A stretch of DNA of 45,678 nt from a virus (taxonomy: Duplodnaviria > Heunggongvirae > Uroviricota > Caudoviricetes): the IMG/VR virus record IMGVR_UViG_2663763326_000005. One strand, given 5' to 3'. This document shows, in pieces, positions 3,608-45,678 of the stretch. Both the position numbers and the translations under genes were made by a program. Position 1 is the first letter of the stretch; each line of letters begins with the position of its first letter. The notes under the pieces are model-generated. The model searched no databases. It had not been told where the DNA came from and saw only the letters and a list, made by a program, of their open reading frames with translations.

Positions 3608-6600
3608 TCAACTGATACTGATGCCGGCTGTTGATTTCTTCATCACGACAACAAGAAGGTCGCTGATACTGGTCGTTGGCGTCCAGTTATTTGCACCATA
3701 TGAAGAAACATTGAAAGTCAGGGTGACATGGCCGTGTCCGGCAGGCATATCAATGACTGATGAAAATACCCTGCTGACATCCGTCGCGGGTTGCTGAAAG
3801 ATTTCCTGTCCGTTCTTCAGCACCTGCAGCTTACAGGTTGAATACCAGTATGACTGTTGGTTGTTGCTGTTGAAGTTTTCATGCTTACCACCGCGAAACA
3901 GAACGGGGGGGACGACTATCTGACGGTCAAAAGCCTGGTCATCGTACACAGTGACCGTTATTGTACCGCTGGCATAACTGCCATTTCTCGGAAAGGCTTT
4001 TCCCACCGTTTTGACAATATCACCTTCAATCTGGTTAGCTGACAGTTTTCCCAGAATCCGACAGTTCTGGTTAATCGTGACATTATTGAGCGTCCCGGAG
4101 TTCGCATTCACGTTACCGCTGATATCCGCATTTCTCGCAGAAAGTCGACCATCAGGTGTCAGTGAAAACGTTGGGGATTGCCACCGCTGGTAATGGTGGG
4201 AGCCGTCAGATATTTCAGGAACACTTCGTTCATGAATATCTGATCGCCCTGCCCAACAAACATCGGCTTTGTATTGCCATTCGCAGGATTAATCATCGCA
4301 ATCCTGTCCGCCGCCAGCAGCACCTGACTCTGCATACCGTCAGGGGTATTCTCAATACCGGCACCAATACCCGCGATATAAAGGCGTCCGTCCTGCATCT
4401 GCTGCAGCTTCACAGCCCACATGCTGTTCAGGTTATTATTTGTATCAACCTGAACCTTCTGTATCTGCTGGATCGCTGCACTCTGGTCTTCCAGTTTCTT
4501 ATTGACGGTCTGCGTGATTTCATTGCTGACATCCGTAATGGACGTCCTGATTTCAGCCAGGTCAGGCGCAAGCTGACCGTTATCAATCTGCGTCCACAAC
4601 TCCTGAGCCAGATGGGTTTTCCCTATCTCTCCTTTGAAAAAATCCAGATAGCCGGATGCATCATCACTCGGCTGGCCAACAGCCTCCACAAATGCCGATT
4701 TGCCAACGGTGTTCACACTGCGAATGTAAAAATAATAATCATGGCCCGGTTTGATATTGATACTGGCGGCTATCCAGTACAGCGCCGTACCAAGATAACG
4801 CGCGCTGGCTTCAACCTGCCTGATATCCGCAATCCGCTTTTCCGAGAACCAGAACTCAAACTGTACCGTCGGATCATAAACGGCAAGATGCGGCGTTGCG
4901 GTTATCTGAAAATAGCCCGGCGTCAGCTCAATCCGCGATGGCGCTGCCGGTGCGGCAATCCGGAACGATACCGACGCCGGATCCCCCTGCTGCCCCCACG
5001 CATTTACCGCCCGGACTGTCAGCCTGTAGTTCCCCAGCGCCAGTTGCCTGAAGCGGTATGTGGTTTCCGTCGTCCTGGCCGTGCTGACCAGCCGCTCACT
5101 GCCGTCATCCGCTGCCACGGTCAGGCGAAGCATAAAGCTCACCCCCTTCACCACCTTCGGTGTGTCCCATCGCGCCAGCACCTGATATTCCCCGCTGTCT
5201 GCGGTGACTTCTGCGGTCAGGTGCTGCACCGCGGGCGGCGTGACACCATTCACCGTGCCACTCTGTTCGCCGTCAAAGTGCGCCCCGTTATCCACGATGG
5301 TCTCTTTTTCCGGCACATGCTGCACGGCGGTGATGGCATACGTGCCGTCGTCGTTTTCACGGATACTCACGCAGCGGAACAGTCGCTGGCGCAGCGTCGG
5401 CAGCTTCAGCCCCATACGCTGTATTCAGCAACACCGTCAGGAACACGGCTCACTTTCACCTTCACGCCGTCGGTGACGGACTGAACCTCCACGCTGACCG
5501 GATTGCCACTTCCGTCAACCAGGCTTATCAGCGTGGTACCGGAGGATGGCAGCGTGATTTCACGGTCGAGCGTCAGCGTCCGGGTCTGGCTGTTCACCGC
5601 CAGCACACGACCACCGGTGCTGATACCGGCATAGTCATCATCGCAGATTTCAATGACATCCCCCGGTACATGGCGAAGCCCTTCAGCACCCACGCTGAAG
5701 TCCACGGTCTGCGTTTCCAGCAGCTCCGTTTTAATCAGCCACAGCCCGGCGCGGTGTGCCTGCCCCCGGCTGGTACAGCCAAAGGCATCCATCTTCGTGA
5801 CGTTACGGCCGTAACGGGCAATGGCCTGCGTATCCTCCACGAGCTCTGTCGCCGTCTCCCAGCCGTTATCCGGGTCAATCCAGTTCACCTCAACGGCATT
5901 ATGGCGGTCCTTCAGGGCGCTGAAGCTGTAGCGGAACGGCGCGCCATCATCCGGCATCACCACATTACTGCGGTTATAGGTCCACACCTTATCTGATGGT
6001 CGGTCCTGCACGAACGTCAGCGTCTGCCCGTTCCATACCGGCATACAGCGCATCGCCGAGCAGAAATCACTGAGCACATCCCACGCCTTGCGCTGTGTGG
6101 TCAGGTACGCATTACAGGTAATGCGCGGCTCCGTGCCGCCAAAGCCGTCCGGCACCGACTGGTCGCAGTACTGGCCGATGACATACAGCGCCCATTTATC
6201 CACATCCGCCGCACCAAGACGTTTCCCCATGCCGTAGCGCGGATGGGTCAGCATATCCCACAGACACCAGGCCATGTTGTTGCTGTATGCCGGTTTTAAC
6301 GTTCCGTCCCAGATACCGCTGTATTGCCGCGTCTGCGGGTTATAGTTCGACGGCACCTGCAGAATGCGCCCGCGAAGATGATAATTACGGCTCACCTGCT
6401 GGCTGCCGAACTGCTCCGAGTCCACCTGCACGCCAACCAGTGCCGTGTTCGGGTAGCACTGTTTCACATCGATGATTTCGGTGTATGACGACCAGAGCGT
6501 TTTGTTCAGCAGCTGGTCTGTGGTGCTGTCCGGCGTCATCCTGCGCATCCGGATATTAAACGGGCGCGGCGGCAGGTTATCCACCACCACCGAGGCCAGA

Positions 6601-28541: not shown

Positions 28542-29573
28542 ATGAAAATTAACAAGATATTATCATCTGCAACACTATTGTATGGTATGTCAATGGCCAT
28601 GTCGGTCGGGAGTTGTGCAACACCTGTCCAGACTAATCTTCCTGGTTACACCCCGGGTGCAGATATCATTAGTGTTTCACCGACCAGAAACCAGGTCGAT
28701 CTCATTGGTGATGTTGTTTATTCCCAGATAAAAGGAACTCGTTCTGTCAGACAGCTTCACATGTCAGTTCTTGTCCCGCGAACAAATGATTTAAAACCAG
28801 CCATTATTTATTATCCCGGCGGCGGATTCATGTCTTCTGAACATGACAAATTTATTGAAATGAGAATGGCTCTGGCAGAAGCTGGTTTTGTTGTGGCCGC
28901 TGTAGAATACAGAACAATTCCTGATACATTTCCAGCACCAGTTGAGGATGGAAAAGCTGCAATACGTTACCTGAGAGAGCATGCCAGCAATTATGGGATT
29001 GATCCTCAAAGAATCGGAGTTCTGGGTGACTCTGCCGGTGGATGGCTTGCCCAGATGATGGGAACTACAAATGGTGACAAAACCTTTGATAAAGGTGACT
29101 TTCTTCAGCAATCCTCAGATGTTCAGGCAGTTGCCACACTTTATGGGATTTCTGACTTGTTGAATATTGGCGAGGGGTTCCCTGAATCAGTGCAGGAGGT
29201 TCATCGCTCTCCTGCCGTAACCGAAGCCTTAATGATCAATGGCCCTGCATTCAGAAATTTTGCGGGAGCCCCCATCACAGCGTCAAAAGAAAAAGCGCTA
29301 AACGCCAGTCCAATCGGACATATGAAAGGAGTAAAACCCCCATTTCTTATTATGCATGGTAGCAAAGACACTCTGGTTTCACCTGAGCAAAGCGCCAAAC
29401 TATTCAGGATGTTGAAGAAGAACGGTGATAACGCTGAGTACGTGCTGGTAGAAGGGGCCGAGCATGGCGATAAGACATGGTATCAGCCAATTATTATAAA
29501 CAGAGTCGTTGAGTGGTTTACTAAAAACCTGGGAGCGCCTATAAAAACAGCTCCCCAACAACAAAACCCGTAA
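28542..29573 (+). CDS. secreted alpha/beta-hydrolase (esterase/lipase-like), 3-prime end clipped by IS insertion
   Basis: Signal-peptide-like N-terminus MKINKILSSATLLYGMSMAMSVGSCA; oxyanion-hole-like YYPGGGF; nucleophile-elbow-like GDSAGG; later H/D candidates (HGSKDT, AEHGD). The stop TAA (29571-29573) lies inside the IS66 left end. Confidence 0.7.
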   Translation: MKINKILSSATLLYGMSMAMSVGSCATPVQTNLPGYTPGADIISVSPTRNQVDLIGDVVYSQIKGTRSVRQLHMSVLVPRTNDLKPAIIYYPGGGFMSSEHDKFIEMRMALAEAGFVVAAVEYRTIPDTFPAPVEDGKAAIRYLREHASNYGIDPQRIGVLGDSAGGWLAQMMGTTNGDKTFDKGDFLQQSSDVQAVATLYGISDLLNIGEGFPESVQEVHRSPAVTEALMINGPAFRNFAGAPITASKEKALNASPIGHMKGVKPPFLIMHGSKDTLVSPEQSAKLFRMLKKNGDNAEYVLVEGAEHGDKTWYQPIIINRVVEWFTKNLGAPIKTAPQQQNP

Positions 29574-29599: not shown

Positions 29600-31213
29600 T
29601 TATTTATTGGTGAGTACTACGTTCCATGGCAGGAGTTCGTCAACTCGGTTGGAAGGCCATTCCGGCAGTACGCTCAGGATATGGCGCAGATACGCTTCCG
29701 GATCGATACCGTTCAGACGGCAGGTGCCGATCAGCCCGTACAACAGTGCTCCACGCTCGCCGCCGTGATCGCTGCCAAAGAACATAAAGTTTTTCTTTCC
29801 GAGACAGACTGCACGAAGCGCTCTTTCCGCAGCATTATTATCCGCCTCCGCCAGACCGTCATCACTGTAATAACAGAGGGCATCCCACTGATTCAGTACA
29901 TAGCTGAACGCTTCGCCCAGTCTGGATTTTTTCGACAGCGTACCATTCTTCTCCACCATCCATTCATGCAGCGACGTCAGTAACACTTTGCTTCGCTGCT
30001 GCCTGACGGCAAGACGCTCTGACTCCGGTAATCCCCGTATTTCATCCTCGATGGCGTACAGTTCACTGATTCGCTTCAGGGCTTCTTCTGCCGTCGCACT
30101 TTTGCTGCTGATGTATACATCGTGGATTTTTCGCCGGGCATGGGCCCAGCACGCAACTTCTGTCAGTGCACCACCTTCACGTTCTGCACTGAACAACCTG
30201 TCGTAACCTGTGAACGCATCCGCCTGCAGGATACCCCGGAAGGGGCGGAGGTGTTGCTCCGGGTGTTTCCCCTGCCGGTTCGGCGAGTACGCGAACCAGA
30301 CCGCTGGAGGAGATGACGAACCCACATTGCGATCATCCCGGACATACGTCCAGATACGCCCTGTTTTCGCCTTTTTCTGACCCGGTGCCAGTACCTTTAC
30401 CGGTGTGTCATCAGTGTGAACCTTGCGGGTGTTCATTACATAACGGTACAGGGCATCATTCACCGGTGTCATTAACTGGCAGCACGCGTCAACCCAGTTG
30501 GAGAGTAAGGCCCGGCTCAGTTCGACACCCTGGCGGGCAAAGATTTCACTCTGACGATACAGTGGCAGATGTTCGCAGTATTTTCCCGTTAACACGCGGG
30601 CAAGTAATCCGGGGCCCGCGATACCACGCTCTATCGGGCGGGACGGCGCCGGTGCTTCAACAATACAGTCACATTTTGTACAGGCTTTTTTTACCCGTTC
30701 TGTGCGGATCACTTTCAGGGCACTGCTCACCAGTTCCAGCTGTTCAGCGCTGACTTCCCCCAGATAATCCAGCTCACCGCCACACTCCGGGCAACAGCTT
30801 TCTTCTGGCTCCAGGCGGTGTATTTCACGGGGAAGGTGTGCCGGTAACGGACGACGATGGCGCGACTGTCGCAACTGGCGGGGAACCTGAGGATCGTCTT
30901 CCCGCCCACTGTAACGATCGCTGTCCTGTTCACGTTGTTTCAGCAGAGCCTCAGCCAGTTCAACTTCACGACGCAGTTTTTCAGAACGGGTACCGAACAG
31001 CATCCGGCGCAGTTTTTCTATCTGAGCCCGCAGATGTTCTATTTCCCGTTCATCTTCTTCGATCTTTTCTTCGGCACGTGTCAGTGCAGAGCGCAGGAAG
31101 GCTTCCGTCTCTTCAACCAGACTCAGTTGCTGGTCTTTCTGACGGAGGGCTTCAGCCTGCTCAGAGAGCAACCTTTCCAGCTCTGCGATGCGAATGAGGT
31201 ATTTCTGACTCAT
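29600..31213 (-). CDS. IS66-family transposase (TnpC/Orf3)
   Basis: 537-aa ORF with N-terminal coiled-coil/leucine-zipper-like region, Cys cluster (CPECGGEL, CTKCDC) and DDE-type core typical of IS66 transposases. Confidence 0.85.
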   Translation of the reverse strand: MSQKYLIRIAELERLLSEQAEALRQKDQQLSLVEETEAFLRSALTRAEEKIEEDEREIEHLRAQIEKLRRMLFGTRSEKLRREVELAEALLKQREQDSDRYSGREDDPQVPRQLRQSRHRRPLPAHLPREIHRLEPEESCCPECGGELDYLGEVSAEQLELVSSALKVIRTERVKKACTKCDCIVEAPAPSRPIERGIAGPGLLARVLTGKYCEHLPLYRQSEIFARQGVELSRALLSNWVDACCQLMTPVNDALYRYVMNTRKVHTDDTPVKVLAPGQKKAKTGRIWTYVRDDRNVGSSSPPAVWFAYSPNRQGKHPEQHLRPFRGILQADAFTGYDRLFSAEREGGALTEVACWAHARRKIHDVYISSKSATAEEALKRISELYAIEDEIRGLPESERLAVRQQRSKVLLTSLHEWMVEKNGTLSKKSRLGEAFSYVLNQWDALCYYSDDGLAEADNNAAERALRAVCLGKKNFMFFGSDHGGERGALLYGLIGTCRLNGIDPEAYLRHILSVLPEWPSNRVDELLPWNVVLTNK

Positions 31214-31243
31214 GACCGTTTTTATAATGCGGTCAGGAGTTTT

Positions 31244-31594
31244 TTACAACATTGTCAGTGAGTTACGGCTGGATGTTTTTGGCTGACGCCAGTCCAGCTT
31301 ATCGAGGAGCATTGCCAGTTGCGAGCGGGTAATGGATACCTTGCCGTCACGTACCGCAGGCCAGATAAACTGGCCTTCCTCCAGGCGTTTGGTGAACAGG
31401 CACAGACCATCAGCATCAGCCCAAAGAATTTTGACGGTGTCACCCCGTCGGCCACGGAAGATAAACAGGTGACCGGAGAAGGGATTATCATTCAGCACAT
31501 GTTGTACCTGTTCTCCCAGTCCGTTGAAGGATTTACGCATATCGGTAACGCCGGCAACGAGCCAGATACGGGTACCTGATGGGAGTGAGATCAT
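31244..31594 (-). CDS. IS66-family accessory protein TnpB (Orf2)
   Basis: MISLPSGTRIWLVAGVTDMRKSFNGLGEQVQHVLNDNPFSGHLFIFRGRRGDTVKILWADADGLCLFTKRLEEGQFIWP; typical IS66 Orf2. Confidence 0.85.
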   Translation of the reverse strand: MISLPSGTRIWLVAGVTDMRKSFNGLGEQVQHVLNDNPFSGHLFIFRGRRGDTVKILWADADGLCLFTKRLEEGQFIWPAVRDGKVSITRSQLAMLLDKLDWRQPKTSSRNSLTML

Positions 31595-32016
31595 CTTCCC
31601 CTCCCGGTCAGTTCACGGATCAACACTGTGAGCAGCTCTGGCGATGGATTTTCCAGCGTCATGTTACCGTGACGGAATTCCACCTTGCAGGAACTGGCAC
31701 TGACTCTGGTCTGAGTGGAAGTGGATAAAGACGGCGCAATGGCCGCCACAGGTTCTTTCTGCTCATCCGGCGTTATTTCTACAGGTAATAATTCAACGCC
31801 AGTGTCAGAAGAGGTCGTTACCGGAAGACGCCGCGAAACACGCCCTTCGTTCTGCCAGAGCCTGAGCCATTTGAAAATAACATTATCATTGACGCCATTT
31901 TCACGTGCAATCTGTGCAACACAAGCTCCAGGTTGTGATGCCAGTTCCACCATACGAAGTTTGAATTCATTCGAATAGTTTTTACGAGGTTCTTTTCGCC
32001 AGTCCTGTAATTCCAT
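31591..32016 (-). CDS. IS66-family accessory protein TnpA (Orf1)
   Basis: 141-aa ORF with HTH-like segment (ASQPGACVAQIARENGVNDNVIFKWLRLW); overlaps TnpB start (ATGA). Confidence 0.8.
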   Translation of the reverse strand: MELQDWRKEPRKNYSNEFKLRMVELASQPGACVAQIARENGVNDNVIFKWLRLWQNEGRVSRRLPVTTSSDTGVELLPVEITPDEQKEPVAAIAPSLSTSTQTRVSASSCKVEFRHGNMTLENPSPELLTVLIRELTGRGR

Positions 32017-32161: not shown

Positions 32162-35100
32162 TTAACTATCCTTTTCAGGTAGTTTTACAACATAAGTCCT
32201 TATTGTTTTCTCATATGTATTTTTGCTATTCGTTATTTTGGCCTTAATCCAGTGATAACCACTTTCATAGGTGCTGAATTCCGAAGCTGCATTACCTGTC
32301 CAGTGTAACGTTACTGTAGCAGGCTCCATTTTGACCCGTTGAGAGTCTGGACTATCTTCACTACCAGCAGAAAACTCAACCGTACCAGATAATGGGTTTC
32401 CAAAATGATCGACAAATCGAGCATAAATACCTACTGGAGATCCATCGTTTGTCTCATAACCAGGATCTTTTGTTAGAGTCAATACTCCATTTGCGTCATC
32501 AGCGTACAGGGAGAATGATTTCACCGCGCTAACATCACTGCCAAGTTCGTTTAAGGTCGCCGTTAATTTATACGAACCAACCGTTCGACCATGTACGCTT
32601 ACCGTAGCCTGACCGTTCTCATCAGTCGTTACTGTGGTTTTATCAACCACCAACGCACCATATTTAGACGGCCCAGATGTCTTAACATTCAATGCTCGAC
32701 CACTTAATGCTTCGCCTGACTTACTTTTCAACAGTAACGTAAATACCAGATTGTTGGTATCGCTCACTACAGCCGAAGATGCAGATGATGTGATCTCCAA
32801 CACAGCCCCCTTCACATCCGTCACGGCATCAATATTCTGGCTTGCGGTTATGCGTTTCCCATCCAGAACATACTCGGCCTGAATTGTGTACTGGCCTGAT
32901 TTCGATGCAGTGAACTGCGTTGTTGCCTGTCCATGAGCATCCAGTTGCAGATTACTACTGGTCAATGATGCTCCCGTCGATGGTGTAATCGTTAAATCCA
33001 CCTCGCCTGTAAACGCATTGTTATTCGCATCAACCAACTGAATGTTTACTGTTGCGTTTTCACTGCCATCGGCCACAATCTCCTGTTTTGATACACTCAT
33101 ATTCAGTTCTGCAGAAGCAACATCGGGCACAAAAGTTAACTTAACGCTGCCAGATTCCACGCTATGGGAACCGTCAGTCACCCGTGCAGTCACCGTGTAC
33201 TCACCAGCTTTCACCGTTGTAAGCGGAACAGAAACATGCCCTGTTGAATCAGTCACGATATTTGTTGGTACAGATAATCCTTCAGATGAGGTGATGAGCT
33301 GAATCTTTTGCCCATTGACCGACGCATTCGTATTTGTCAGCTGCACATCTAATACCGCTGCATCCTTACCATTAGCAGGAATATTGGAAATTAAACTACT
33401 GCTTTCAGGCGTCAGTGACAGTGAAGCTCCGGTCATATTTGATGCAAAGGTCACTGTTAACTCAGTAGACATCTGAGAACCAGCATGAGCTGTAATCACG
33501 TAAGACCCCGGAGTGGAGCTTATTAACGCAAAAATAGCATTACCATTTTCGTCAGTTGAAACAGCATGTTCACCACCAACTTGAGTTATCCCTGCTGGTA
33601 AAGACAATGTGACAGCATAACCAGGAACAACATTGCCGAAACGGTCCGCAAGGCTTACAGTTACCATATTTCTCTGTTTTCCATCAGCCAATGCATTATT
33701 TTGGCTGGCTTCAAACTGAGAGAATGTAACCTGCTGCCGGTCCTCAATAAAGGTGATTTCTTTCTTAACACCTGAGAAATCATGACTATCAGATTTAACA
33801 CCGATAGTAATCTTACCAGCTCGTTTTGAAGTTACTGTCGCGCTATAGACACCGTCTTTTTCCGTTACAGTCCCAAACTCGACTCCTTCTGCCTGGTTAA
33901 GAGCATAAAAGCTCAGAGTGTTATCACCAGTGATTGCATTTCCTTGTGAATCCTTCACTGCCAGTTGTAGATTGATATTGTAACCAACTACCTGTTCTGC
34001 TGGTGCAGCGGTTAAAACAGCACTGACCTCAGAATCAGGTTCTGTTGTTGCTGTTTGCTTAATACTGAGAGTAAATGTTTTTCCCTGAACTTTTGCAGTT
34101 ACACGTACCGTACCAGCCTGCGAACCAGCAGCCAGAACAGAGCGATATACCCCAGCAGAGATTTCCTCTACCGCGCCTAATGACGGAGCAGTTACCGTTT
34201 CACGCTGTCGAGCACTATTGCTATCTGCTGTAAATTCCACTGACATTTCAATGTCATCAGCCAGTCCGGTTAATGCCTTACCGTTACTATCTTTCAGGCT
34301 TAATACTATCGGATAAGTGGATTGGCTATCAGCAGAGATCGTCGGCGACGAATCTCCATCCAGTGTAAAAGACGAATCAGCTGTCGATACATCACTATCA
34401 GTAATGGCTGCCTGCTTAATATTCAGAGTAAAGGTTTTTCCCTGAACTTTTGCAGTTACACGTACCGTACCAGCCTGCGAACCAGCAGCCAGAACAGAGC
34501 GATATACACCAGCAGAGATTTCCTCTACCGCGCCTAATGACGGAGCAGTTACCGTTTCACGCTGTCGAGCACTATTGCTATCTGCTGTAAATTCCACTGA
34601 CATTTCAATGTCATCAGCCAGTCCGGTTAATGCCTTACCGTTACTATCTTTCAGGCTTAATACTATCGGATAAGTGGATTGGCTATCAGCAGAGATCGTC
34701 GGCGACGAATCTCCATCCAGTGTAAAAGACGAATCAGCTGTCGATACATCACTATCAGTAATGGCTGCCTGCTTAATATTCAGAGTAAAGGTTTTTCCCT
34801 GAACTTTTGCAGTTACACGTACCGTACCAGCCTGCGAACCAGCAGTCAGAACAGAGCGATATACCCCAGCAGAGATTTCCTCTACCGCGCCTAATGACGG
34901 AGCAGTTACCGTTTCACGCTGTCGAGCACTATTGCTATCTGCTGTAAATTCCACTGACATTTCAATGTCATCAGCCAGTCCGGTTAATGCCTTACCGTTA
35001 CTATCTTTCAGGCTTAATACTATCGGATAAGTGGATTGGCTATCAGCAGAGATTGTCGGCGACGAATCTCCATCCAGTGTAAAAGACGAATCAGCCGTCG

Positions 35101-36427
35101 AGACACCACTATCAGTAACGCTAATATTCATCACGGCATAGTTGGAAACGTTGCCTCTGTTATCCTGTACTGTGGCTCCAACATTCCACGAATTTACACC
35201 TTCGCTTTTATAAGCCGGTAAAGTGATCTGCCATGATGTGCCATTTCCACTGATCTTGCCGCCAGCCGCAGTGAATGCACTATCATTCCACTGTACAGAC
35301 TTGATACCACCACTAGCATTGTTGATTGTCAGTGTTACAGGGATGATTGATTCCCCCTCCCCCTGAACAGACTCTGGCAAACTGATTTTCAGTGCATGCT
35401 TCTTCTTGTACTCCAGAACAATGTTGTTATTTCGTTCAACAAAATCATAACGCCGGTTCTGGACTTCTCGCATAACTGCAACATTATCGCTGCTAAGCTG
35501 TTCAGCCAAGGAAACGCCCGGGCGATAATTAAACTCAACACCAAAGGTTGTATCGTGAGTGTTGCTCTGTCCTTGCTTATGCTGTGCAGAAAACTTAATC
35601 AGAGGAACTGGTGTATAAGAAATTCCCCCAGTAACTGCGTAAGGGTTTTCCTGCAGGTTATCGCTTCCAAATAACCCGACATTTTTACCATAATATTTTT
35701 CAAACTGAATAGATGCCCCTAATTGCGGATAAGCAGGTAGCCATCCTTCAGCAGAAAAATCCCAGCCATTTGCAGGTCTTTCCAGATAATCATCAATATC
35801 ACGACTGTTCTTCCAGTCAGATAGACCAAAATAGGTATTTACACCAAGCCTGAAATAATCCCTCCAGTACTCAACCCCAAAACCTGCACGAGAGTGACTA
35901 CGACTTAAATCGTAATCATAGAAAACATTCGCACCCAACATTGCGTTATCAGGAGTGAAATGACGAATCCCCAAACCAATATTGGTCTGATTTCGGTCAT
36001 CAGTACGATGTAGTGATGTCTGACTGAATAACACATAATCCTGAGTATCCAGCCATGGATATAAAAAGTCGAATGATGAATCCTTCAAGGAAAAAGAATC
36101 ATCGACATTAAGCTTGATGCGCGCATTGCCATATTGTTGCAACCAGTCGACGACCTCTTTTGTCGCCTGAGTTGATAAAGTATTTACAGCAAAACTACTT
36201 GCATTATTATTCGCCAGGCTCTGACCTGCACTTGCTGCAAATGAGGCCACTTTATTTGCATGCTCATCGCTGGCATAAATTTGCGTAACATCTTTATTAC
36301 CAGATGATGCAAAACTGTTTGCTGGGATCAAAGAAAGAGAAACTGGAGATAATATCTGGGTAACAATTACCGACCATGTAATCGCGCCAGATGCAGTTTT
36401 TTTTAACTTTTTATTCACAGTGGTCAT
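32162..36427 (-). CDS. inverse autotransporter adhesin (intimin/invasin family), 1421 aa, with Ig-like repeats
   Basis: N-terminal signal/anchor, then a beta-barrel-like region (DFLYPWLDTQDYVLFSQTSLHRTDDRNQTNIGLGIRHF.., GFGVEYWRDYFRLGVNTYF, EGWLPAYPQLGASIQFEKYYG), then a long series of Ig-like passenger repeats including three near-identical 119-aa units. AT-rich upstream region. Confidence 0.8.
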   Translation of the reverse strand: MTTVNKKLKKTASGAITWSVIVTQILSPVSLSLIPANSFASSGNKDVTQIYASDEHANKVASFAASAGQSLANNNASSFAVNTLSTQATKEVVDWLQQYGNARIKLNVDDSFSLKDSSFDFLYPWLDTQDYVLFSQTSLHRTDDRNQTNIGLGIRHFTPDNAMLGANVFYDYDLSRSHSRAGFGVEYWRDYFRLGVNTYFGLSDWKNSRDIDDYLERPANGWDFSAEGWLPAYPQLGASIQFEKYYGKNVGLFGSDNLQENPYAVTGGISYTPVPLIKFSAQHKQGQSNTHDTTFGVEFNYRPGVSLAEQLSSDNVAVMREVQNRRYDFVERNNNIVLEYKKKHALKISLPESVQGEGESIIPVTLTINNASGGIKSVQWNDSAFTAAGGKISGNGTSWQITLPAYKSEGVNSWNVGATVQDNRGNVSNYAVMNISVTDSGVSTADSSFTLDGDSSPTISADSQSTYPIVLSLKDSNGKALTGLADDIEMSVEFTADSNSARQRETVTAPSLGAVEEISAGVYRSVLTAGSQAGTVRVTAKVQGKTFTLNIKQAAITDSDVSTADSSFTLDGDSSPTISADSQSTYPIVLSLKDSNGKALTGLADDIEMSVEFTADSNSARQRETVTAPSLGAVEEISAGVYRSVLAAGSQAGTVRVTAKVQGKTFTLNIKQAAITDSDVSTADSSFTLDGDSSPTISADSQSTYPIVLSLKDSNGKALTGLADDIEMSVEFTADSNSARQRETVTAPSLGAVEEISAGVYRSVLAAGSQAGTVRVTAKVQGKTFTLSIKQTATTEPDSEVSAVLTAAPAEQVVGYNINLQLAVKDSQGNAITGDNTLSFYALNQAEGVEFGTVTEKDGVYSATVTSKRAGKITIGVKSDSHDFSGVKKEITFIEDRQQVTFSQFEASQNNALADGKQRNMVTVSLADRFGNVVPGYAVTLSLPAGITQVGGEHAVSTDENGNAIFALISSTPGSYVITAHAGSQMSTELTVTFASNMTGASLSLTPESSSLISNIPANGKDAAVLDVQLTNTNASVNGQKIQLITSSEGLSVPTNIVTDSTGHVSVPLTTVKAGEYTVTARVTDGSHSVESGSVKLTFVPDVASAELNMSVSKQEIVADGSENATVNIQLVDANNNAFTGEVDLTITPSTGASLTSSNLQLDAHGQATTQFTASKSGQYTIQAEYVLDGKRITASQNIDAVTDVKGAVLEITSSASSAVVSDTNNLVFTLLLKSKSGEALSGRALNVKTSGPSKYGALVVDKTTVTTDENGQATVSVHGRTVGSYKLTATLNELGSDVSAVKSFSLYADDANGVLTLTKDPGYETNDGSPVGIYARFVDHFGNPLSGTVEFSAGSEDSPDSQRVKMEPATVTLHWTGNAASEFSTYESGYHWIKAKITNSKNTYEKTIRTYVVKLPEKDS
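34050..35120. repeat. three near-perfect direct tandem repeats of 357 bp inside the adhesin gene
   Basis: The same string (e.g. gcttaat.. at 34057, 34414, 34771) recurs with a 357-bp period. It encodes DSGVSTADSSFTLDGDSSPTISADSQSTYPIVLSLKDSNGKALTGLADDIEMSVEFTADSNSARQRETVTAPSLGAVEEISAGVYRSVL.. three times and produces identical spurious plus-strand ORFs at 34322, 34679 and 35036. Confidence 0.9.
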
Positions 36428-37378: not shown

Positions 37379-38394
37379 AGATCCACCCCGTAAATCCAGT
37401 CTGTGTTTGTCAGGTCGAGTTTTGGTTTGCTAGCTGTCACGCCTGCCTGTTGCTTGTTACGGTTGATTTCGAGTTGGGTCCACTTGTCGCGGAGTTTGGC
37501 CGGACTTAGCACGTTACCGGACCAGAAGTTGTCCTGGCATGCCCAGCGGAACAGCACGCACATGTCGCGGTGGTTACGTCCGTCACGTTCACGCATCAGG
37601 CGGATATCGTTAGCCCACCCTGCAAAATTCGGTTTTCTGGCTGATGGCGCGATGGTCTTCACCATGTCAAACATCCACTCTGCGGCGGTCAGGTCTTCTG
37701 CTGTCCCCCACTTGCTGCCGCTCTGAATTGCAGCATCCGGTTTCACCACAGGAAGATCGTTTTCTGGTTGGTCAGAGGATTCGCCAGAATTCTCGGACGA
37801 AAAAGGTTTTATATTGTCTTTTGTTAGTTTGTCTTTTGTGTTTACCTGATTCGGGTAAACGCCTTTACCTGATTTGGGTAAACTTTTTTTACCTGATTCA
37901 GGTAAATTTACCTCTTTCAGGTAAACTTTATTTTTCTTACCTGATTCGGGTAATGTTGACCATTCACTGACCACATTATTAATGCCGGTATTCCGCCCGC
38001 TCTGAATAAAAATCCCACGCTTTACCAGAACACTTTTTGCAGCAGAACACTTGTGCGGCAATATCCCGGTTAATTCGGAAAGTTGCTCGTTGCTAACCCA
38101 ATCCAGTTTTTTATTAAAGCCATATGTTTTGCGCATGACAGCCAGAAAGACCAGAAGCTGGTGCTGTGTTAATCCGGCCAGCATCACAGCTTCCAGCAAC
38201 TCATTTGCAATGCGCGTATAACCATCATCGAGATCTGCCACGCGCGGCTCCTTTTGTGCCGCATCCGGCACTGGAAAATTGAATATCTCAGCAGTGTTTG
38301 CCATAATTCCTCCCGCAATGAGTGTGTTACGATTTGCACCTGAAAGTCGGTTCTGTTCCAGCAGACCGGCTTTCGCCATTTCTGAACCTGTCAT
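37375..38394 (-). CDS. O: replication initiator O-like protein (origin-binding)
   Basis: Lambda-O-like N-terminal domain (ADLDDGYTRIANELLEAVMLAGLTQHQLLVFLAVMRKTYGFNK), iterons inside the coding sequence, stop overlaps the P start. Confidence 0.8.
   Translation of the reverse strand: MTGSEMAKAGLLEQNRLSGANRNTLIAGGIMANTAEIFNFPVPDAAQKEPRVADLDDGYTRIANELLEAVMLAGLTQHQLLVFLAVMRKTYGFNKKLDWVSNEQLSELTGILPHKCSAAKSVLVKRGIFIQSGRNTGINNVVSEWSTLPESGKKNKVYLKEVNLPESGKKSLPKSGKGVYPNQVNTKDKLTKDNIKPFSSENSGESSDQPENDLPVVKPDAAIQSGSKWGTAEDLTAAEWMFDMVKTIAPSARKPNFAGWANDIRLMRERDGRNHRDMCVLFRWACQDNFWSGNVLSPAKLRDKWTQLEINRNKQQAGVTASKPKLDLTNTDWIYGVDL
37842..37954. repeat. replication origin iterons (5 x 17-bp TTACC..GGTAA) with adjacent AT-rich tract
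   Basis: TTACCTGATTCGGGTAA (37842), TTACCTGATTTGGGTAA (37865), TTACCTGATTCAGGTAA (37889), TTACCTCTTTCAGGTAA (37908), TTACCTGATTCGGGTAA (37938); AT-rich 37801-37841. Confidence 0.8.
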
Positions 38395-38930
38395 ATCGCC
38401 CCCAGCATGGTAGTAACCATCGCCATCAATGGACCAGCCAGATCTGGGTCCACACGAAACATCGACACAATACCTTCACTAATTTCCTTCAGTTTCTGGT
38501 GGCGTGGTGCGTTGAGAATGACAGCCTGTTTTGCCTCACTGAGTTCCTTTTCCATTTCAGCCAACCTAGCCATGAAGCTATCCTGCTCAACCAGGTAACC
38601 GCGATATTCCAGCGGTAGTACCGCCAGAATTGCCGGGGTCAGTTCACGCACGTTATTTCGGTATTTTTCAGAATCGAATTTGTTATCGAGGAAGCGGAAC
38701 AGCTTCTGGCGTGCACGGCTGACATCATCAGGGAAATCGATGGTGCCGCCGCCCTGCTCCAGATACTCATTCACAATGAGTGTGGCAACGACATCCTGAT
38801 TATCTACAGCCGACCAGGCGCGGACGGCATCACGGATTTTTTCGTGGCCTGGCACCTGTTTTGTTTGAGAACGATTTATCACCGCAGTCGGGCTAAATCC
38901 GCTAGTCTGTTGGTATGTAAGTGGTTGCAT
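38391..38930 (-). CDS. putative CII-like regulatory protein (179 aa) between cro and O
   Basis: Position between cro and O, stop overlapping the O start (ATGA). Sequence not lambda cII; assignment is by position and a vague resemblance to CII-like prophage regulators. Confidence 0.35.
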   Translation of the reverse strand: MQPLTYQQTSGFSPTAVINRSQTKQVPGHEKIRDAVRAWSAVDNQDVVATLIVNEYLEQGGGTIDFPDDVSRARQKLFRFLDNKFDSEKYRNNVRELTPAILAVLPLEYRGYLVEQDSFMARLAEMEKELSEAKQAVILNAPRHQKLKEISEGIVSMFRVDPDLAGPLMAMVTTMLGAI

Positions 38931-39230: not shown

Positions 39231-39334
39231 AACAACCTCCGTGGTTAATTTGAATCAAGATTAAAACTATGGTTGTTTTTAGTCAACAACCATTTTCGTT
39301 TGATGGAATAAAACCTTGGTTGTACATTTGGACT
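39231..39334. promoter_or_regulatory. OR operator / divergent PR and PRM promoter region
   Basis: Palindrome ATGGTTGTT-TTTAGTC-AACAACCAT (39269-39293) plus further AACAACC/GGTTGT half-sites. Candidate PR on minus: TTGACT (39281-39286), 17 bp, TAATCT (39258-39263). Candidate PRM on plus: TTGATG (39300-39305), 17 bp, TACATT (39323-39328), with cI ATG at 39335 (leaderless-like). Confidence 0.6.
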
Positions 39335-40024
39335 ATGAAAACAACACTCTCAGAAAGACTTAAAGAAGCCAGATTAGCGCGAGGCCTTACACAAAAGGCG
39401 CTTGGGGATTTGGTCGGGGTTAGCCAGGCTGCTATTCAGAAAATCGAAACAGGGAAAGCTAATCAAACAACTAAAATCGTGGAGATCGCGAACGCTTTGG
39501 GTGTGCGCGCAGAATGGTTATCTTCTGGCGTTGGAAATATGTCAGACAGTACAGTGCAACCAATACAATCAACTGTCAGCCATTCCAAATACTTCAAGAT
39601 TGACGTTCTTGATATAGAAGTCAGTGCTGGGCCGGGAGTCATCAACCGTGAGTTTGTAGAAGTTCTACGCTCGGTTGAGTACTCGTTTGACGATGCTCGT
39701 CACATGTTCGATGGTAGGAAGGCGGAAAATATCCGCATCATTAACGTGCGTGGTGACAGCATGTCAGGAACGATCGAACCAGGTGATCTGCTGTTCGTTG
39801 ATATCACAGTTAAATCTTTCGACGGTGATGGTATCTATGCGTTTCTGTACGACGACACAGCCCATGTAAAGCGCCTGCAAATGATGAAGGATAAGCTGCT
39901 GGTCATCTCTGATAACAAAAGCTACTCACCGTGGGACCCGATCGAGAAAGACGAGATGAACCGGGTGTTCATCTTCGGTAAGGTTATTGGGAGCATGCCG
40001 CAGACATATAGGAAGCATGGGTAG
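39335..40024 (+). CDS. cI: CI-type prophage repressor (HTH plus LexA/S24-like autocleavage domain)
   Basis: MKTTLSERLKEARLARGLTQKALGDLVGVSQAAIQKIETGKANQTTKIVEIANALGV (HTH) and a C-terminal S24-like domain (VRGDSMSGTIEPGDLLFVD..AHVKRL). Confidence 0.85.
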   Translation: MKTTLSERLKEARLARGLTQKALGDLVGVSQAAIQKIETGKANQTTKIVEIANALGVRAEWLSSGVGNMSDSTVQPIQSTVSHSKYFKIDVLDIEVSAGPGVINREFVEVLRSVEYSFDDARHMFDGRKAENIRIINVRGDSMSGTIEPGDLLFVDITVKSFDGDGIYAFLYDDTAHVKRLQMMKDKLLVISDNKSYSPWDPIEKDEMNRVFIFGKVIGSMPQTYRKHG

Positions 40025-41989: not shown

Positions 41990-42666
41990 CACCGGACATT
42001 ATCCTGCAGCGTACCGGGATCGACGTGAGAGCTGTCGAACAGGGGGATGATGCATGGCACAAATTACGGCTCGGCGTCATCACCGCTTCAGAAGTTCACA
42101 ACGTGATAGCAAAGCCCCGCTCAGGAAAGAAGTGGCCTGACATGAAAATGTCCTACTTCCACACCCTGCTGGCTGAGGTTTGCACCGGTGTGGCTCCGGA
42201 AGTTAATGCTAAGGCGCTGGCGTGGGGAAAACAGTACGAGAACGACGCCAGAACCCTGTTTGAATTCACTTCCGGCGTGAATGTTACTGAATCCCCGATC
42301 ATCTATCGCGACGAAAGTATGCGCACCGCCTGCTCTCCCGATGGTTTATGCAGTGACGGCAATGGCCTTGAGCTGAAATGCCCGTTTACCTCCCGGGATT
42401 TCATGAAGTTCCGGCTCGGTGGTTTCGAGGCCATAAAGTCGGCTTACATGGCCCAGGTGCAGTACAGCATGTGGGTGACACGAAAAGATGCCTGGTACTT
42501 TGCCAACTATGACCCACGAATGAAGCGTGAAGGCCTGCATTATGTCGTGGTTGAGCGGGATGAAAAGTACATGGCGAGTTTTGACGAGATGGTGCCGGAG
42601 TTCATCGAAAAAATGGACGAAGCACTGGCTGAAATTGGTTTTGTATTTGGAGAGCAATGGCGATGA
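41986..42666 (+). CDS. exo: Exo (Red-alpha 5-prime to 3-prime exonuclease)
   Basis: [69 protein letters not shown]..; 226 aa. Confidence 0.9.
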
Positions 42667-42845
42667 CCCATCCTCACGATAATATCCGGGTAGGCGCGAT
42701 CACTTTCGTCTACTCCGTTACAAAGCGAGGCTGGGTATTTCACGGTCTTTCTGTTATCCGAAATCCGCTGAAAGCCCAGCGGCTGGCTGAGGAGATAAAT
42801 AATAAACGGGGGGCGGTATGCACAAAGCATCTCCTGTTGAGTTAA
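42657..42845 (+). CDS. small b-region protein (lambda orf61-like)
   Basis: 62-codon ORF directly after exo, overlapping its end. Confidence 0.5.
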
Positions 42846-43009
42846 GAACGAGTATTGATTTGGCACATAGCCTTGCTCAAATTGGAGTCAGGTTTGTGCC
42901 AATACCAGCAGAAACAGACGAAGAATTTCATACGTTAGCCACATCCCTTTCACAAAAGCTGGAAATGATGGTGGCGAAAGCAGAAGCAGATGAGAGAGAC
43001 CAGGTATGA
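42818..43009 (+). CDS. small b-region protein (lambda orf63-like)
   Basis: 63-codon ORF, acidic C-terminus; overlaps neighbours. Confidence 0.5.
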   Translation: MHKASPVELRTSIDLAHSLAQIGVRFVPIPAETDEEFHTLATSLSQKLEMMVAKAEADERDQV

Positions 43010-43089
43010 CAACCACTGAATGCATTTTTCTGGCAGCGGGCTTCATATTCTGTGTGCTTATGCTTGCCGACATGGGGCTTGTTCAGTGA
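43006..43089 (+). CDS. possible 27-aa hydrophobic peptide
   Basis: Hand-translated ATG at 43006 (ATGA overlap with the preceding stop): MTTTECIFLAAGFIFCVLMLADMGLVQ; one predicted transmembrane helix. Below the ORF-track cutoff. Confidence 0.25.
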   Translation: MTTTECIFLAAGFIFCVLMLADMGLVQ

Positions 43090-43301
43090 CACCTCAGCAA
43101 GAAAATGCCCTTCGCAGCATTGCCCGTCAGGCTAATTCTGAAATCAAAAAAGTCAGACAGCAGTTTCCGGATAAAAACGTCAATGACATTTGCCGTAGCG
43201 TACTGAAGAAGCACCGCGAAACGGTAACGCTGAAGGGATTCACACCGACTCATTTAAGCCTGGCAATCGGCATGTTAAACGGCGTCTTTAAGGAACGATG
43301 A
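43086..43301 (+). CDS. small hypothetical b-region protein
   Basis: ORF 43020..43301; likely start at GTG 43086 (..TPQQENALRSIARQANSEIKKVRQQFPDKNVNDICRSVLKKHRETVTLKGF..). Confidence 0.4.
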   Translation: MTPQQENALRSIARQANSEIKKVRQQFPDKNVNDICRSVLKKHRETVTLKGFTPTHLSLAIGMLNGVFKER

Positions 43302-43399
43302 ACATGAAAAGCAAAATTATCAGGGAGCTACAGGCTCCTTTTTTATTGTTCGCATTCACCCTCAAGCGTATTAACCAACAGTTCAGGGATTAATGAAAG

Positions 43400-43621
43400 A
43401 TGGCAGACATCATTGATTCAGCATCAGAAATAGAAGAATTACAGCGCAACACAGCAATAAAAATGCGCCGCCTGAACTACCTGGCTGTATCTGCCACTCA
43501 TTGTTGTGAGTGTGGCGATCCGATAGATGAACGAAGACGCCTGGCCGTTCAGGGTTGTCGGACTTGCGCCAGTTGCCAGCAAGATCTGGAGCTTATCCGC
43601 AAACAAAGGGGGATTAAGTGA
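43400..43621 (+). CDS. DksA/TraR-type C4 zinc-finger protein
   Basis: 73 aa with CxxC..17..CxxC (CCECGDPIDERRRLAVQGCRTCASC), typical of phage TraR-like proteins. Confidence 0.7.
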   Translation: MADIIDSASEIEELQRNTAIKMRRLNYLAVSATHCCECGDPIDERRRLAVQGCRTCASCQQDLELIRKQRGIK

Positions 43622-43947
43622 TGGCTAACCTGCAACTTGCTGTTAAAAGTGAATACTTCGATGCCATGATTCGCGGAGAGAAAACGGAAGAGTATCGCTT
43701 GTGTAATGACTACTGGAATAAGCGAATTATGTTCCGGGAATATGACCGCCTGATTATCACAAAGGGATATCCGAAGCGCGACGATTCCAGTCGCAGAATT
43801 GATGTTCCGTATGACGGATATGAAGTGAAGACAATCACACATCCGCACTTTGGCGATAAACCGGTAAAGGTGTTCGCTATAAAGGTGAATATCAGCACTG
43901 AATATCAATCCGCACAACACAAGGTCAAGAATGTTCAGAGTGATTGA
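43621..43947 (+). CDS. ASCH-like (PUA-fold) domain protein, hypothetical
   Basis: About 108 aa with a GxKxxExR-type motif (IRGEKTEEYR) near the N-terminus as in ASCH domains; start overlaps the TraR-like stop (TGATG). Confidence 0.4.
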   Translation: MANLQLAVKSEYFDAMIRGEKTEEYRLCNDYWNKRIMFREYDRLIITKGYPKRDDSSRRIDVPYDGYEVKTITHPHFGDKPVKVFAIKVNISTEYQSAQHKVKNVQSD

Positions 43948-44170
43948 CCCTAACACCTGGTACGTCGACCACCACGGCACTCCCTGCAAAATCCTGCGTT
44001 CTACCCACAACAAAGTTCACTACATCCGAAAAGGCAGAACATGTATCGCCAGCATGTTCCGCTTTAATCATGACTTTGAACCTGTGAATAAAGCTGATGC
44101 AGATCGGATAGCAGAAGAGATCGAAACGGCAGAACACATTAAGAAGTTACGTGACATGCGCAGGAAATAG
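43931..44170 (+). CDS. small basic hypothetical protein (79 aa)
   Basis: ORF whose start overlaps the end of the ASCH-like gene by 17 nt. Confidence 0.4.
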   Translation: MFRVIDPNTWYVDHHGTPCKILRSTHNKVHYIRKGRTCIASMFRFNHDFEPVNKADADRIAEEIETAEHIKKLRDMRRK

Positions 44171-44309
44171 AAAAATTGATAAATTCAATACTGCATTTCT
44201 CAGCATTAAATTTATCTCTATGACCAGTCAAGAGATGTACCTGCCATGAGCTTAATATCATGTCAGATATATCGGTCACAAACTCCCTCAGCAGCTAAGA
44301 GGAGGACAA

Positions 44310-44546
44310 ATGTCTCGACTAATCACTTTACAGGACTGGGCTAAAGAAGAATTTGGGGACTTAGCACCAAGTGAGCGAGTTCTGAAAAAATACGCGCAAG
44401 GGAAAATGATGGCCCCACCCGCTATAAAAGTTGGTCGCTACTGGATGATTGACCGAAATTCCCGTTTTGTAGGAACGCTTGCAGAACCGCAACTCCCAAT
44501 AAACGCAAACCCAAAACTCCAAAGGATAATCGCTGATGGCTGCTAG
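44310..44546 (+). CDS. excisionase-like protein (Xis)
   Basis: 78-aa ORF immediately upstream of and overlapping int; N-terminus MSRLITLQDWAKEE resembles the Xis LTLQEWA motif; AGAGGAGG RBS. Confidence 0.65.
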   Translation: MSRLITLQDWAKEEFGDLAPSERVLKKYAQGKMMAPPAIKVGRYWMIDRNSRFVGTLAEPQLPINANPKLQRIIADGC

Positions 44547-45678
44547 ACCCCGATCTCACAAAATCTCTATACCCAATTTATATTGCAAATTAGATAAGCG
44601 AACCGGAAAGGTATATTGGCAATACAAACATCCACTATCCGGTCGTTTTCATAGCTTAGGAACTGATGAGAATGAAGCAAAACAAGTTGCTACTGAAGCA
44701 AATACCATTATTGCTGAACAACGTACCAGACAAATATTAAGCGTCAATGAGCGTCTGGAAAGAATGAAAGGCAGGCGCTCAGACATTACGGTGACAGAAT
44801 GGCTTGATAAATATATTTCTATCCAAGAGGACAGGCTGCAACATAATGAACTAAGACCCAACTCCTATCGGCAAAAAGGCAAACCCATTCGTCTTTTCCG
44901 TGAGCATTGTGGAATGCAACACCTCAAGGATATTACCGCACTTGATATTGCCGAAATAATTGATGCTGTAAAGGCTGAAGGTCATAACAGGATGGCGCAA
45001 GTCGTGAGAATGGTGTTGATCGACGTCTTCAAAGAAGCACAACACGCAGGACATGTTCCGCCAGGATTTAACCCAGCGCAGGCAACAAAACAACCGCGAA
45101 ATCGAGTAAACCGCCAAAGATTGTCACTGCCCGAATGGCAGGCAATATTTGACAGCGTAAGCAGACGGCAGCCCTATTTAAAATGCGGCATGCTACTTGC
45201 TCTTGTTACTGGACAACGTTTAGGCGATATCTGCAATTTGAAATTCTCTGATATATGGGACGACATGTTGCACATTACTCAGGAAAAAACCGGTTCAAAA
45301 CTTGCTATTCCGCTTAACCTGAAATGCGATGCTCTGAATATTACCCTTCGTGAAGTTATATCTCAGTGCAGGGATGCTGTTGTTAGTAAATATCTGGTCC
45401 ATTACCGTCACACTACCTCTCAAGCAAACAGAGGAGACCAGGTTTCTGCAAATACTCTGACAACGGCTTTTAAAAAGGCCCGGGAAAAATGTGGCATAAA
45501 ATGGGAGCAAGGAACTGCGCCCACATTTCATGAGCAGCGATCTCTGTCAGAACGGTTATATCGGGAACAGGGTCTGGATACGCAAAAGTTGTTAGGCCAT
45601 AAATCCAGAAAAATGACCGACCGATACAATGATGATCGTGGTAAAGACTGGATTATCGTAGATATCAAAACAGCATAG
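44536..45678 (+). CDS. int: tyrosine integrase, complete (stop is the last codon of the window)
   Basis: 380-aa ORF with the recombinase C-terminal catalytic region (..HEQRSLSERLYREQG..LLGHKSRKMTDRYNDD..), located next to xis at the prophage end. Confidence 0.85.
   Translation: MAARPRSHKISIPNLYCKLDKRTGKVYWQYKHPLSGRFHSLGTDENEAKQVATEANTIIAEQRTRQILSVNERLERMKGRRSDITVTEWLDKYISIQEDRLQHNELRPNSYRQKGKPIRLFREHCGMQHLKDITALDIAEIIDAVKAEGHNRMAQVVRMVLIDVFKEAQHAGHVPPGFNPAQATKQPRNRVNRQRLSLPEWQAIFDSVSRRQPYLKCGMLLALVTGQRLGDICNLKFSDIWDDMLHITQEKTGSKLAIPLNLKCDALNITLREVISQCRDAVVSKYLVHYRHTTSQANRGDQVSANTLTTAFKKAREKCGIKWEQGTAPTFHEQRSLSERLYREQGLDTQKLLGHKSRKMTDRYNDDRGKDWIIVDIKTA

Follow-up and report, generated by a model that had tools for sequence, protein, structure and literature searches.

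Overlapping genes for an Orf73 orthologue, a predicted ASCH-fold protein and a DUF4222 protein upstream of xis–int in a phage-21-type lambdoid prophage

We consider it very probable that three overlapping genes located upstream of the xis and int genes of a lambdoid prophage are promoter-distal accessory genes of the pL operon, independently assorting cassettes that occupy fixed slots between orf73 and xis. The genes (ORF1, ORF2, and ORF3) lie in a 45,678-nucleotide stretch of viral DNA (IMG/VR record IMGVR_UViG_2663763326_000005; hereafter, the window). As judged from DNA comparisons of related loci, they are separate mosaic cassettes with breakpoints at gene boundaries, shuffled independently of one another, and not a co-evolving module. 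As a discovery, the locus offers little, since its sequence is identical to that of sequenced phages and of hundreds of E. coli prophages, its annotation is already public, and ORF1 belongs to an experimentally characterised family. What is added here is that the ASCH label of ORF2 holds at the level of the predicted fold, that ORF3 falls in the family of the EHEC virulence regulator RgdR, and that the overlapping gene chain is a by-product of mosaic cassette exchange and of a one-base stop loss.

The locus and its prophage

The features of the region are listed below.

42657–42845, + strand: orf60a/DUF1317 (Pfam DUF1317, E 8.5e-39)
42818–43009, + strand: orf63/DUF1382 (Pfam DUF1382, E 9.1e-29)
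43020–43301, + strand: orf61-like ORF, 93 aa, similar to lambda orf61
43322–43340, + strand: terminator-like hairpin followed by a T-run, from a consensus scan, between the orf61-like ORF and orf73
43400–43621, + strand: ORF1 (TraR-type), 73 aa; stop codon TGA at 43619–43621
43621–43947, + strand: ORF2 (predicted ASCH fold, phrog_625), 108 aa; start codon ATG at 43621–43623
43931–44170, + strand: ORF3 (DUF4222, RgdR family), 79 aa; last gene before the recombination module
44178–44216, no strand assigned: AT-rich inverted repeat with a 16-bp stem, in the ORF3–xis spacer
44310–44546, + strand: xis, phage-21-type excisionase (Pfam Exc)
44536–45678, + strand: int, phage-21-type tyrosine integrase (Pfam Arm-DNA-bind_1 and Phage_integrase)

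The ORF1/ORF2 junction reads AAGTGATGG, with a single A common to the TGA stop and the ATG start codons, and ORF2 and ORF3 overlap by 17 nt (43931–43947). The chain of three overlapping ORFs upstream of xis–int described in the original prediction, with its TGATG (1 nt) and 17-nt overlaps, is thus present in the sequence. An in-frame GTG at 43618 provides an alternative start for ORF2. A Shine–Dalgarno-like purine-rich stretch precedes each of the three ORFs, and a gap of 139 nt separates ORF3 from xis. The inverted repeat in this gap travels with the phage-21-type xis–int cassette and not with DUF4222. Because ORF1, ORF2, and ORF3 have strong family matches (PF01258, 36 bits; phrog_625, E 2e-51; and PF13973, 68.5 bits, respectively) and hundreds of conserved homologues each, they are, by homology, genuine genes and not chance ORFs. 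Overlaps are common throughout this part of the operon: six of the ten junctions between 40902 and 45678 overlap, the two of the trio included, the others being bet/exo (4 nt), exo/orf60a (10 nt), orf60a/orf63 (28 nt), and xis/int (11 nt). An antisense ORF of 154 aa (43549–44013) runs opposite the trio, but the conservation of this stretch is accounted for by the + strand genes. No Rfam RNA family was found anywhere in the window.

Over a 1-kb segment, the window shows 100% identity with Escherichia phages ev207 and PhiR63_2 and 97.7% identity with phage 21. Of 5426 complete E. coli genomes, 592 carry at least 80% of the length of this segment, including the full trio, and the trio arrangement is unchanged in four phage records. 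In the RefSeq annotation of E. coli SK1144 the gene order is gam, bet, exo, DUF1317, DUF1382, a hypothetical protein, TraR/DksA, an ASCH domain-containing protein, a DUF4222 domain-containing protein, excisionase, integrase, and icd; the phage 21 record has the same layout. In the identical prophages, icd lies directly beyond int. The window is thus a phage-21/ev207-type lambdoid prophage that integrates at icd, and the trio is part of its exo–xis region. RefSeq already names all three genes (TraR/DksA, ASCH-domain, and DUF4222), and these assignments are public knowledge.

Homology to lambda DNA extends from 43000 to 43611 (96%), and the products of orf60a, orf63, and the orf61-like ORF are 89–98% identical to their lambda counterparts. 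The exo–xis region is non-essential in the laboratory (PMC4195576). In lambda and phi24B, a terminator, t2, and a promoter, p1, are predicted between orf61 and orf73, and transcript levels change between these two genes (PMC4195576). The 43322–43340 hairpin is found at the site where t2 is predicted in both phages, so that orf73 and the genes that follow it may be expressed as a sub-unit. Only to this extent does the notion of a unit have some support.

The three proteins

ORF1 was originally predicted to contain a TraR-type zinc finger, and this assignment is borne out by a match to PF01258 (zf-dskA_traR) above the gathering cut-off (36 bits against 24.9; E 6.7e-09) and by 90% identity, with seven substitutions, to lambda Orf73, whose gene is un-annotated in the lambda record. 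ORF1 also matches phrog_54 ("DksA-like zinc-finger protein", E 2.5e-25), scores slightly under the cut-off of NCBIfam TIGR02419 (55.1 against 59.7), and has a RefSeq entry, WP_000763374.1, named "TraR/DksA family transcriptional regulator". The D3 and D6 residues and the zinc-site cysteines C35, C38, C56, and C59 are retained, as in lambda Orf73. By these sequence criteria, ORF1 is an orthologue of lambda Orf73, a TraR/DksA-type C4 zinc-finger protein. Lambda Orf73 is a TraR homolog that binds RNAP and complements a dksA-null strain (PMC9239242; see also PMC8614690). It inhibits rRNA and ribosomal-protein promoters and slows host growth (PMC9239242), and phage yield is 3–4-fold higher in its presence, an effect that depends on D3 and D6, as tested with D3A/D6A (PMC9239242). 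At 90% identity to Orf73, ORF1 would be expected to bind at the RNA polymerase secondary channel and to regulate rRNA promoters.

The original prediction labelled ORF2 as ASCH-like. At the sequence level the match is weak: Pfam ASCH (PF04266) scores 14.3 bits, below the gathering score of 21.2, and covers residues 6–28 only. Sub-threshold matches to the same model were obtained for 49 of 100 close ORF2 relatives and 10 of 124 distant ones. No NCBIfam model matched ORF2 (or ORF3), and searches of PDB chains with the single sequence and with close-family and diverse-family profiles returned no ASCH entry at a significant E-value, the only ASCH entry among the matches listed being 3iuw (E 0.43). 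At the level of fold, the label holds. An AlphaFold2 model built with 100 homologues (pLDDT 82.6; mostly >88 in core residues 1–90, and <50 in C-terminal residues 100–108) gave an ASCH/PUA-like beta-barrel for the 43621–43947 product, and in a Foldseek search of the PDB, ASCH entries (3iuw, 2z0t, 1wk2, and 5gus) came out on top, with modest scores (best E 5e-3). The GxKxxExR-like motif on which the label had been based is present as the octapeptide G19-E-K21-T-E-E24-Y-R26, and is conserved in 124 relatives with 36–76% identity, all of which have K21, with G19, E24, and R26 each kept in 90% or more. Among close relatives, there is almost no variation at His74 and His76. On the strength of the model, ORF2 is a divergent ASCH/PUA-like fold protein with its own phage-borne family, phrog_625.

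The ORF2 family comprises 1026 clusters at 50% identity (E up to 1e-3), and is found in 333 phage records, among them Salmonella phages (133), HK022, Stx phages, and Ralstonia phages; beyond lambdoids, it occurs in the Ralstonia phages and in two phages with genomes of 270 and 469 kb. Homologues with 66–84% identity are present in Citrobacter, Kluyvera, Brenneria, and Enterobacter. When larger ASCH-containing proteins were scanned for domain fusions, no informative fusion was seen: nine had no Pfam domain, and the single fusion, Ea22–ASCH, is probably a merged gene call. A literature search found no studied phage ASCH protein from the exo–xis region, and a review modelling exo–xis proteins mentions neither ASCH nor DUF4222 (PMC8614690). 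An assignment of ORF2 as a YqfB-type amidohydrolase was rejected because the nucleophile, Thr24, is replaced by Glu24; from the YqfB catalytic set (Lys21, Thr24, Arg26, and Glu74), ORF2 keeps Lys21 and Arg26.

ORF3, which was expected to be a small basic protein, is indeed one (79 aa, pI 9.56), and it matches DUF4222 (PF13973; 68.5 bits, E 3.6e-19, gathering score 27). Proteins 70–77% identical to it are found in Citrobacter and Enterobacter. In a structural model with a pLDDT of 90.9, a small five-strand barrel, SH3/Tudor-like in its fold, is followed by a basic helix of 25 residues; this barrel fold is generic, and unrelated domains (PWWP, FeoA, eL27, and chromo) score equally well. The same Pfam family includes RgdR (ECs1581; 82 bits, E 2e-23), a basic protein of 99 aa encoded by a prophage of E. 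coli O157:H7. RgdR stimulates LEE1 and type III secretion, represses motility, and shows only weak DNA binding that is not sequence-specific (PMC3378721, PMC10877973); an RGD tripeptide matters for its activity (PMC3378721). Among DUF4222 proteins, such pleiotropic host-gene regulation (LEE1, motility) is known only for ECs1581 and C1493 (PMC3378721). A pairwise alignment of ORF3 and RgdR has 24% identity (E 7e-06), and by family match and alignment ORF3 therefore belongs, as a distant member, to the one DUF4222 lineage for which a phenotype has been described. The RGD motif aligns with P7-N8-T9 (PNT) in ORF3, and Klebsiella-phage and phi24B members of DUF4222 have RGQ at these positions. We considered the possibility that the RgdR prophage resides at icd, as does phage 21, and rejected it: the RgdR prophage, Sp7, is a P4-like element located between roxA and phoQ.

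Cassette exchange and the origin of the overlaps

The overlaps had been taken to imply that the three genes are co-translated as a unit, whose conserved synteny should be seen across prophages. To evaluate co-occurrence, 80 viral loci were sampled per gene (ASCH copies at least 88% identical, DUF4222 at least 96%, and TraR at least 93%); the sampled loci share phylogeny, and the counts that follow are descriptive only. The trio was present in 21 of the 80 ASCH-centred loci, 14 of the 80 DUF4222-centred loci, and 20 of the 80 TraR-centred loci. It was absent from all 12 loci from other genera (ASCH 66–84% identical), and neither ASCH nor the trio was seen at any of 80 more divergent DUF4222 loci. 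Conserved co-occurrence was thus not observed. The gene upstream of ASCH was DUF551 in 26 loci, TraR/Orf73 in 24, DUF4752 in 21, a Lar-family gene in 6, and others in 3; the downstream gene was DUF4222 in 25 loci and otherwise belonged to at least six other ORF families. Irrespective of the partner, the ASCH start overlapped the upstream stop by 1 nt (34 loci) or 8 nt (44 loci). TraR without ASCH accompanied DUF4222 in 64 of the 80 DUF4222-centred loci, and most close DUF4222 copies directly follow TraR, with no ASCH in between. In the TraR-centred set, the next gene was Ea22-like in 31 loci and ASCH in 29, and an orf61-like gene lay upstream in 77.

Pairwise DNA comparisons placed the breakpoints at gene boundaries, namely at 43611/43622, 43911, and 43927. 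The core of the portable ASCH cassette is 43622–43911. The DUF4222 cassette starts at 43927, and in loci with a different xis, homology ends at 44160. The stop of lambda orf73 lies in the same AAGTGA context, and there it is overlapped by the GTG start of ea22. In phage ev017 and in one further locus, the ASCH frame ends with GAA TAA, giving a 94-aa protein and a 25-nt spacer; in the window and in phage 21 the sequence is GAA TAT, and ASCH is longer by 14 and 16 residues, respectively. The 17-nt overlap thus results from a recent single-base, TAA-to-TAT stop loss, and residues 95–108 of ORF2 are, from this comparison, a read-through tail. Varied partners, cassette breakpoints, the stop loss, and the frequency of overlaps in the operon together indicate that the overlaps reflect general compaction and cassette slots. 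The idea of a co-translated functional unit is accordingly not upheld, though with genes so tightly packed translational coupling is possible.

The association between TraR and DUF4222 extends further than the trio. In a second, divergent DUF4222 sample, a TraR-like gene was found at most 2.5 kb upstream in 69 of 80 loci, and in a Klebsiella phage with a DUF4222 protein of only 44% identity, TraR directly adjoins DUF4222 with a 1-nt overlap; the co-residence fails in P27 and in Sp7. Since Orf73 belongs to the conserved exo–xis block, such co-residence is expected from position alone, and we regard it as a lead and not a result. The presence of both genes in the same segment in most lineages sampled leaves room for the view that some functional interplay may exist. 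DUF4222 is also the last gene before xis/int in the window, in 78 of 80 close relatives, in the Klebsiella phage, in phi24B, and in P27, and in the divergent sample it is followed by an HTH_17 excisionase-type protein and an integrase in 69 of 80 loci. This position before the recombination module holds whatever the xis or int family, and may be non-random.

Several other readings of the locus were weighed against the cassette explanation. That the trio is a true module, kept at a fixed ratio by translational coupling and acting jointly on RNAP or RNA for takeover or anti-defence, is suggested by the stop/start overlaps at both junctions, by the arrangement preserved in 592 complete E. coli genomes and four phage records, by the TraR–DUF4222 adjacency with its 1-nt overlap in the distant Klebsiella phage, and by the TraR-like gene near 69 of the 80 divergent DUF4222 loci. 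It is nevertheless very unlikely: ASCH copies at least 88% identical have at least seven upstream and at least seven downstream partners, their 1- or 8-nt overlap persists with all of them, ASCH occurs outside lambdoids (in Ralstonia phages and in the 270- and 469-kb phages), and close DUF4222 copies mostly lack ASCH. Moreover, the second overlap is a one-base stop loss whose TAA-keeping version has a 25-nt spacer, overlaps are the norm in the operon, and PADLOC yielded no matches. The opposite view, that ORF2 and ORF3 at present serve no function, being either dispensable filler or genes in decay, is most improbable. The region can be dispensed with in the laboratory (PMC4195576), and in phages 1H12 and ev017 all that is annotated of DUF4222 is a 117-nt remnant, with 1H12 also lacking ASCH; against this, both proteins are conserved across genera (ASCH 66–84%, DUF4222 70–77%), and both have sharply conserved residues and confident folded models.

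Two further alternatives concern single members of the trio. An enzymatic ORF2, either a YqfB-like N4-acylcytidine amidohydrolase or a ZmASCH-like ribonuclease acting on RNA or nucleosides, would agree with the conservation of Lys21 and Arg26 at the same positions as in the YqfB catalytic octapeptide and with the nearly invariant His74 and His76 of close relatives; it is unlikely given the Glu24 in place of the YqfB nucleophile, Thr24, the 12% identity to YqfB, and the lack of a link to any characterised ASCH enzyme in PDB sequence searches. We find it quite unlikely that ORF3 belongs with the recombination module and controls xis/int expression or the direction of recombination. DUF4222 does come last before xis/int in every lambdoid context examined, with unrelated xis types (Exc-type and HTH_17-type) and different integrases, but the 3' end of ORF3 coincides with a cassette boundary, across which DUF4222 is freely combined with different xis–int modules, a pattern that points to a positional slot rather than to co-adaptation. 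In addition, the annotations of the isolated phages 1H12 and ev017 include truncated DUF4222 remnants, and RgdR, whose gene neighbours that of a primase in a P4-like element, has LEE and motility as its targets.

Proposed roles and comparison with known systems

According to the explanation that we favour, in which the trio consists of accessory cassettes of the pL operon, the three genes would be transcribed after induction or infection on the N-antiterminated pL transcript, as shown for the lambda orthologue, with the transcript reading through the 43322–43340 hairpin. By orthology, ORF1 would contact the RNAP secondary channel through its N-terminal acidic helix (D3, D6) and C4 zinc module, inhibit rRNA and ribosomal-protein promoters, slow host growth, and raise phage yield. 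ORF2, by its model a small stand-alone ASCH/PUA-like barrel, may bind RNA or a (modified) nucleotide ligand in a putative cleft formed by the invariant Lys21 together with Glu24 and Arg26. ORF3 may act like RgdR, its only studied relative, and serve as a small cofactor with pleiotropic effects on host transcription that binds DNA weakly and without sequence specificity. For ORF2 and ORF3, we infer these mechanisms from the fold and from one distant relative. In lambda, the slots between orf73 and xis contain ea22, ea8.5, and orf55. The product of orf55, which occupies the equivalent pre-xis slot, was considered as a diverged DUF4222 protein and rejected (hhalign probability 0.1).

The trio had also been proposed to serve host manipulation or anti-defence. 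The former stands: it is established for the Orf73 family (PMC9239242) and, through RgdR, plausible for DUF4222 (PMC3378721). The latter gained no support, as PADLOC gave no match for ORF1, ORF2, or ORF3. The sole hint of anti-defence is that 6 of 80 ASCH copies adjoin a Lar-family gene. A bolder view, in which DUF4222 proteins (ORF3 and RgdR) are Tudor-like adaptors that dock on host RNAP and act alongside the upstream TraR-type protein, is improbable; it is suggested by the TraR-like gene found upstream of DUF4222 in most lineages sampled. If it were true, the distal pL operon would carry at least two small RNAP-targeting factors, and the pleiotropic effects of RgdR on LEE and motility would gain a mechanism. 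The phage ASCH family (~1000 clusters at 50% identity) and DUF4222 are relevant to host reprogramming by lambdoid and Stx prophages.

The locus can be compared with several known systems. F-plasmid TraR and lambda Orf73 are DksA/TraR C4 zinc-finger regulators of the RNAP secondary channel, and ORF1 is assigned to the same class by homology. Lambda Orf73 also has 73 aa, and its C-x2-C...C-x2-C zinc site, D3, and D6 are kept in ORF1; in both phages the gene follows orf61 and a terminator-like hairpin, and its stop forms an AAGTGA junction with the next gene. The differences are the seven substitutions of ORF1, none of which is at a known functional residue, and the next gene, which is ea22 in lambda and ASCH here. 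[quoted passage not shown] Where lambda has ea22, ea8.5, and orf55, the window has ASCH and DUF4222.

The ASCH family (PF04266, of the PUA-like clan) includes E. faecalis 3iuw, P. horikoshii PH0355, E. coli YqfB, Z. mobilis ZmASCH, and human TRIP4. ORF2 is 12–22% identical to the solved ASCH structures (12% to YqfB), and differs from the family in scoring under the Pfam gathering threshold and in having Glu at the position of YqfB Thr24. Like RgdR, ORF3 matches PF13973 and is a small basic prophage protein with a predicted barrel domain followed by a basic C-terminal segment. The two proteins are 24% identical, and ORF3 has no RGD motif; while RgdR is encoded beside the primase gene of a P4-like element, ORF3 is encoded directly before the xis–int genes of a lambdoid prophage.

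Boundaries of the ASCH gene

The genes immediately upstream of the ASCH gene in comparison loci L031-L085 are unrelated (DUF551, Lar-family, and others), yet they share the C-terminal peptide ...PQEVNRG. It thus appears that the mosaic breakpoint falls within the upstream gene, ~20 nt short of its 3′ end, and that it brings the ASCH ribosome-binding region along. In the same set of loci, the DUF4752 partner has another C-terminus, ...EEGRG.

At the other end of the gene, a comparison of window positions 43903-43947 with the equivalent position in loci L005 and L028 revealed that one TAA-to-TAT change has cost the ASCH gene its stop codon, both in phage 21 and here. The change adds a tail of 14 residues in the window and 16 in phage 21, and the ASCH and DUF4222 genes overlap because of it. 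The final nine residues of the tail are modeled with low confidence. The 94-aa form of ASCH is commoner (60 of the 80 loci).

Beyond E. coli-type phages, TraR and ASCH were seen together only in Brenneria bubanii (L254), where a different TraR-like zinc-finger ORF (4935-5138, 67 aa, beginning MADIIDQANEL...) lies ~1.1 kb downstream of an ASCH homologue.

The DUF4222 slot and the xis-int cassette

Two features mark the distal end of the region:

43931-44170, DUF4222 gene (ORF3), last gene before xis/int
44178-44216, AT-rich inverted repeat (16-bp stem), just 3′ of the DUF4222 stop

DUF4222 genes occupy a fixed slot as the final gene 5′ of xis/int in the window and in loci L086-L165, L258-L260, and L262-L341. 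The slot is kept in three or more diverged subgroups of DUF4222, whether the excisionase is Exc-type or HTH_17-type, and with different integrase families. The cassette boundary is the 3′ end of the DUF4222 gene; the inverted repeat, which has a terminator score on the minus strand only, is part of the phage-21-type xis-int cassette.

The segment upstream of orf73

A hairpin lies between the orf61-like ORF and orf73, and a short ORF overlaps it:

43322-43340, plus strand, hairpin with a T-run
43298-43393, 31-aa ORF overlapping the hairpin

The DNA around the hairpin is 96% identical to lambda, and a terminator, t2, and a promoter, p1, have been predicted at this site in lambda and phi24B (PMC4195576). 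The 31-aa ORF, the phage 21 equivalent of which is annotated as a “putative secreted protein”, is doubtful.

The orf61-like ORF (43020-43301) has 93 aa, as does phi24B vb_24B_7c; the RefSeq call in the window is a shorter, 71-aa product. In lambda (3216-3495 of locus L003) the match is split into two segments in different reading frames, and the 61-aa lambda orf61 therefore looks, from sequence, like a frameshifted version of the 93-aa ORF.

Cargo and immunity region

The prophage cargo sits between the replication genes and the late region:

28542-29573, plus strand, BD-FAE/alpha-beta-hydrolase esterase
29600-32016, minus strand, IS66-family element
32162-36427, minus strand, 1421-aa intimin/invasin-like inverse autotransporter (IAT_beta plus Big_1/Invasin_D3 repeats)

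The immunity region comprises:

38391-38930, minus strand, YdaT_toxin-domain protein, 5′ of the O/P replication genes
39269-40024, plus strand, 251-aa repressor (HTH_3 plus Peptidase_S24)

The immunity region of the window is not lambda-like.
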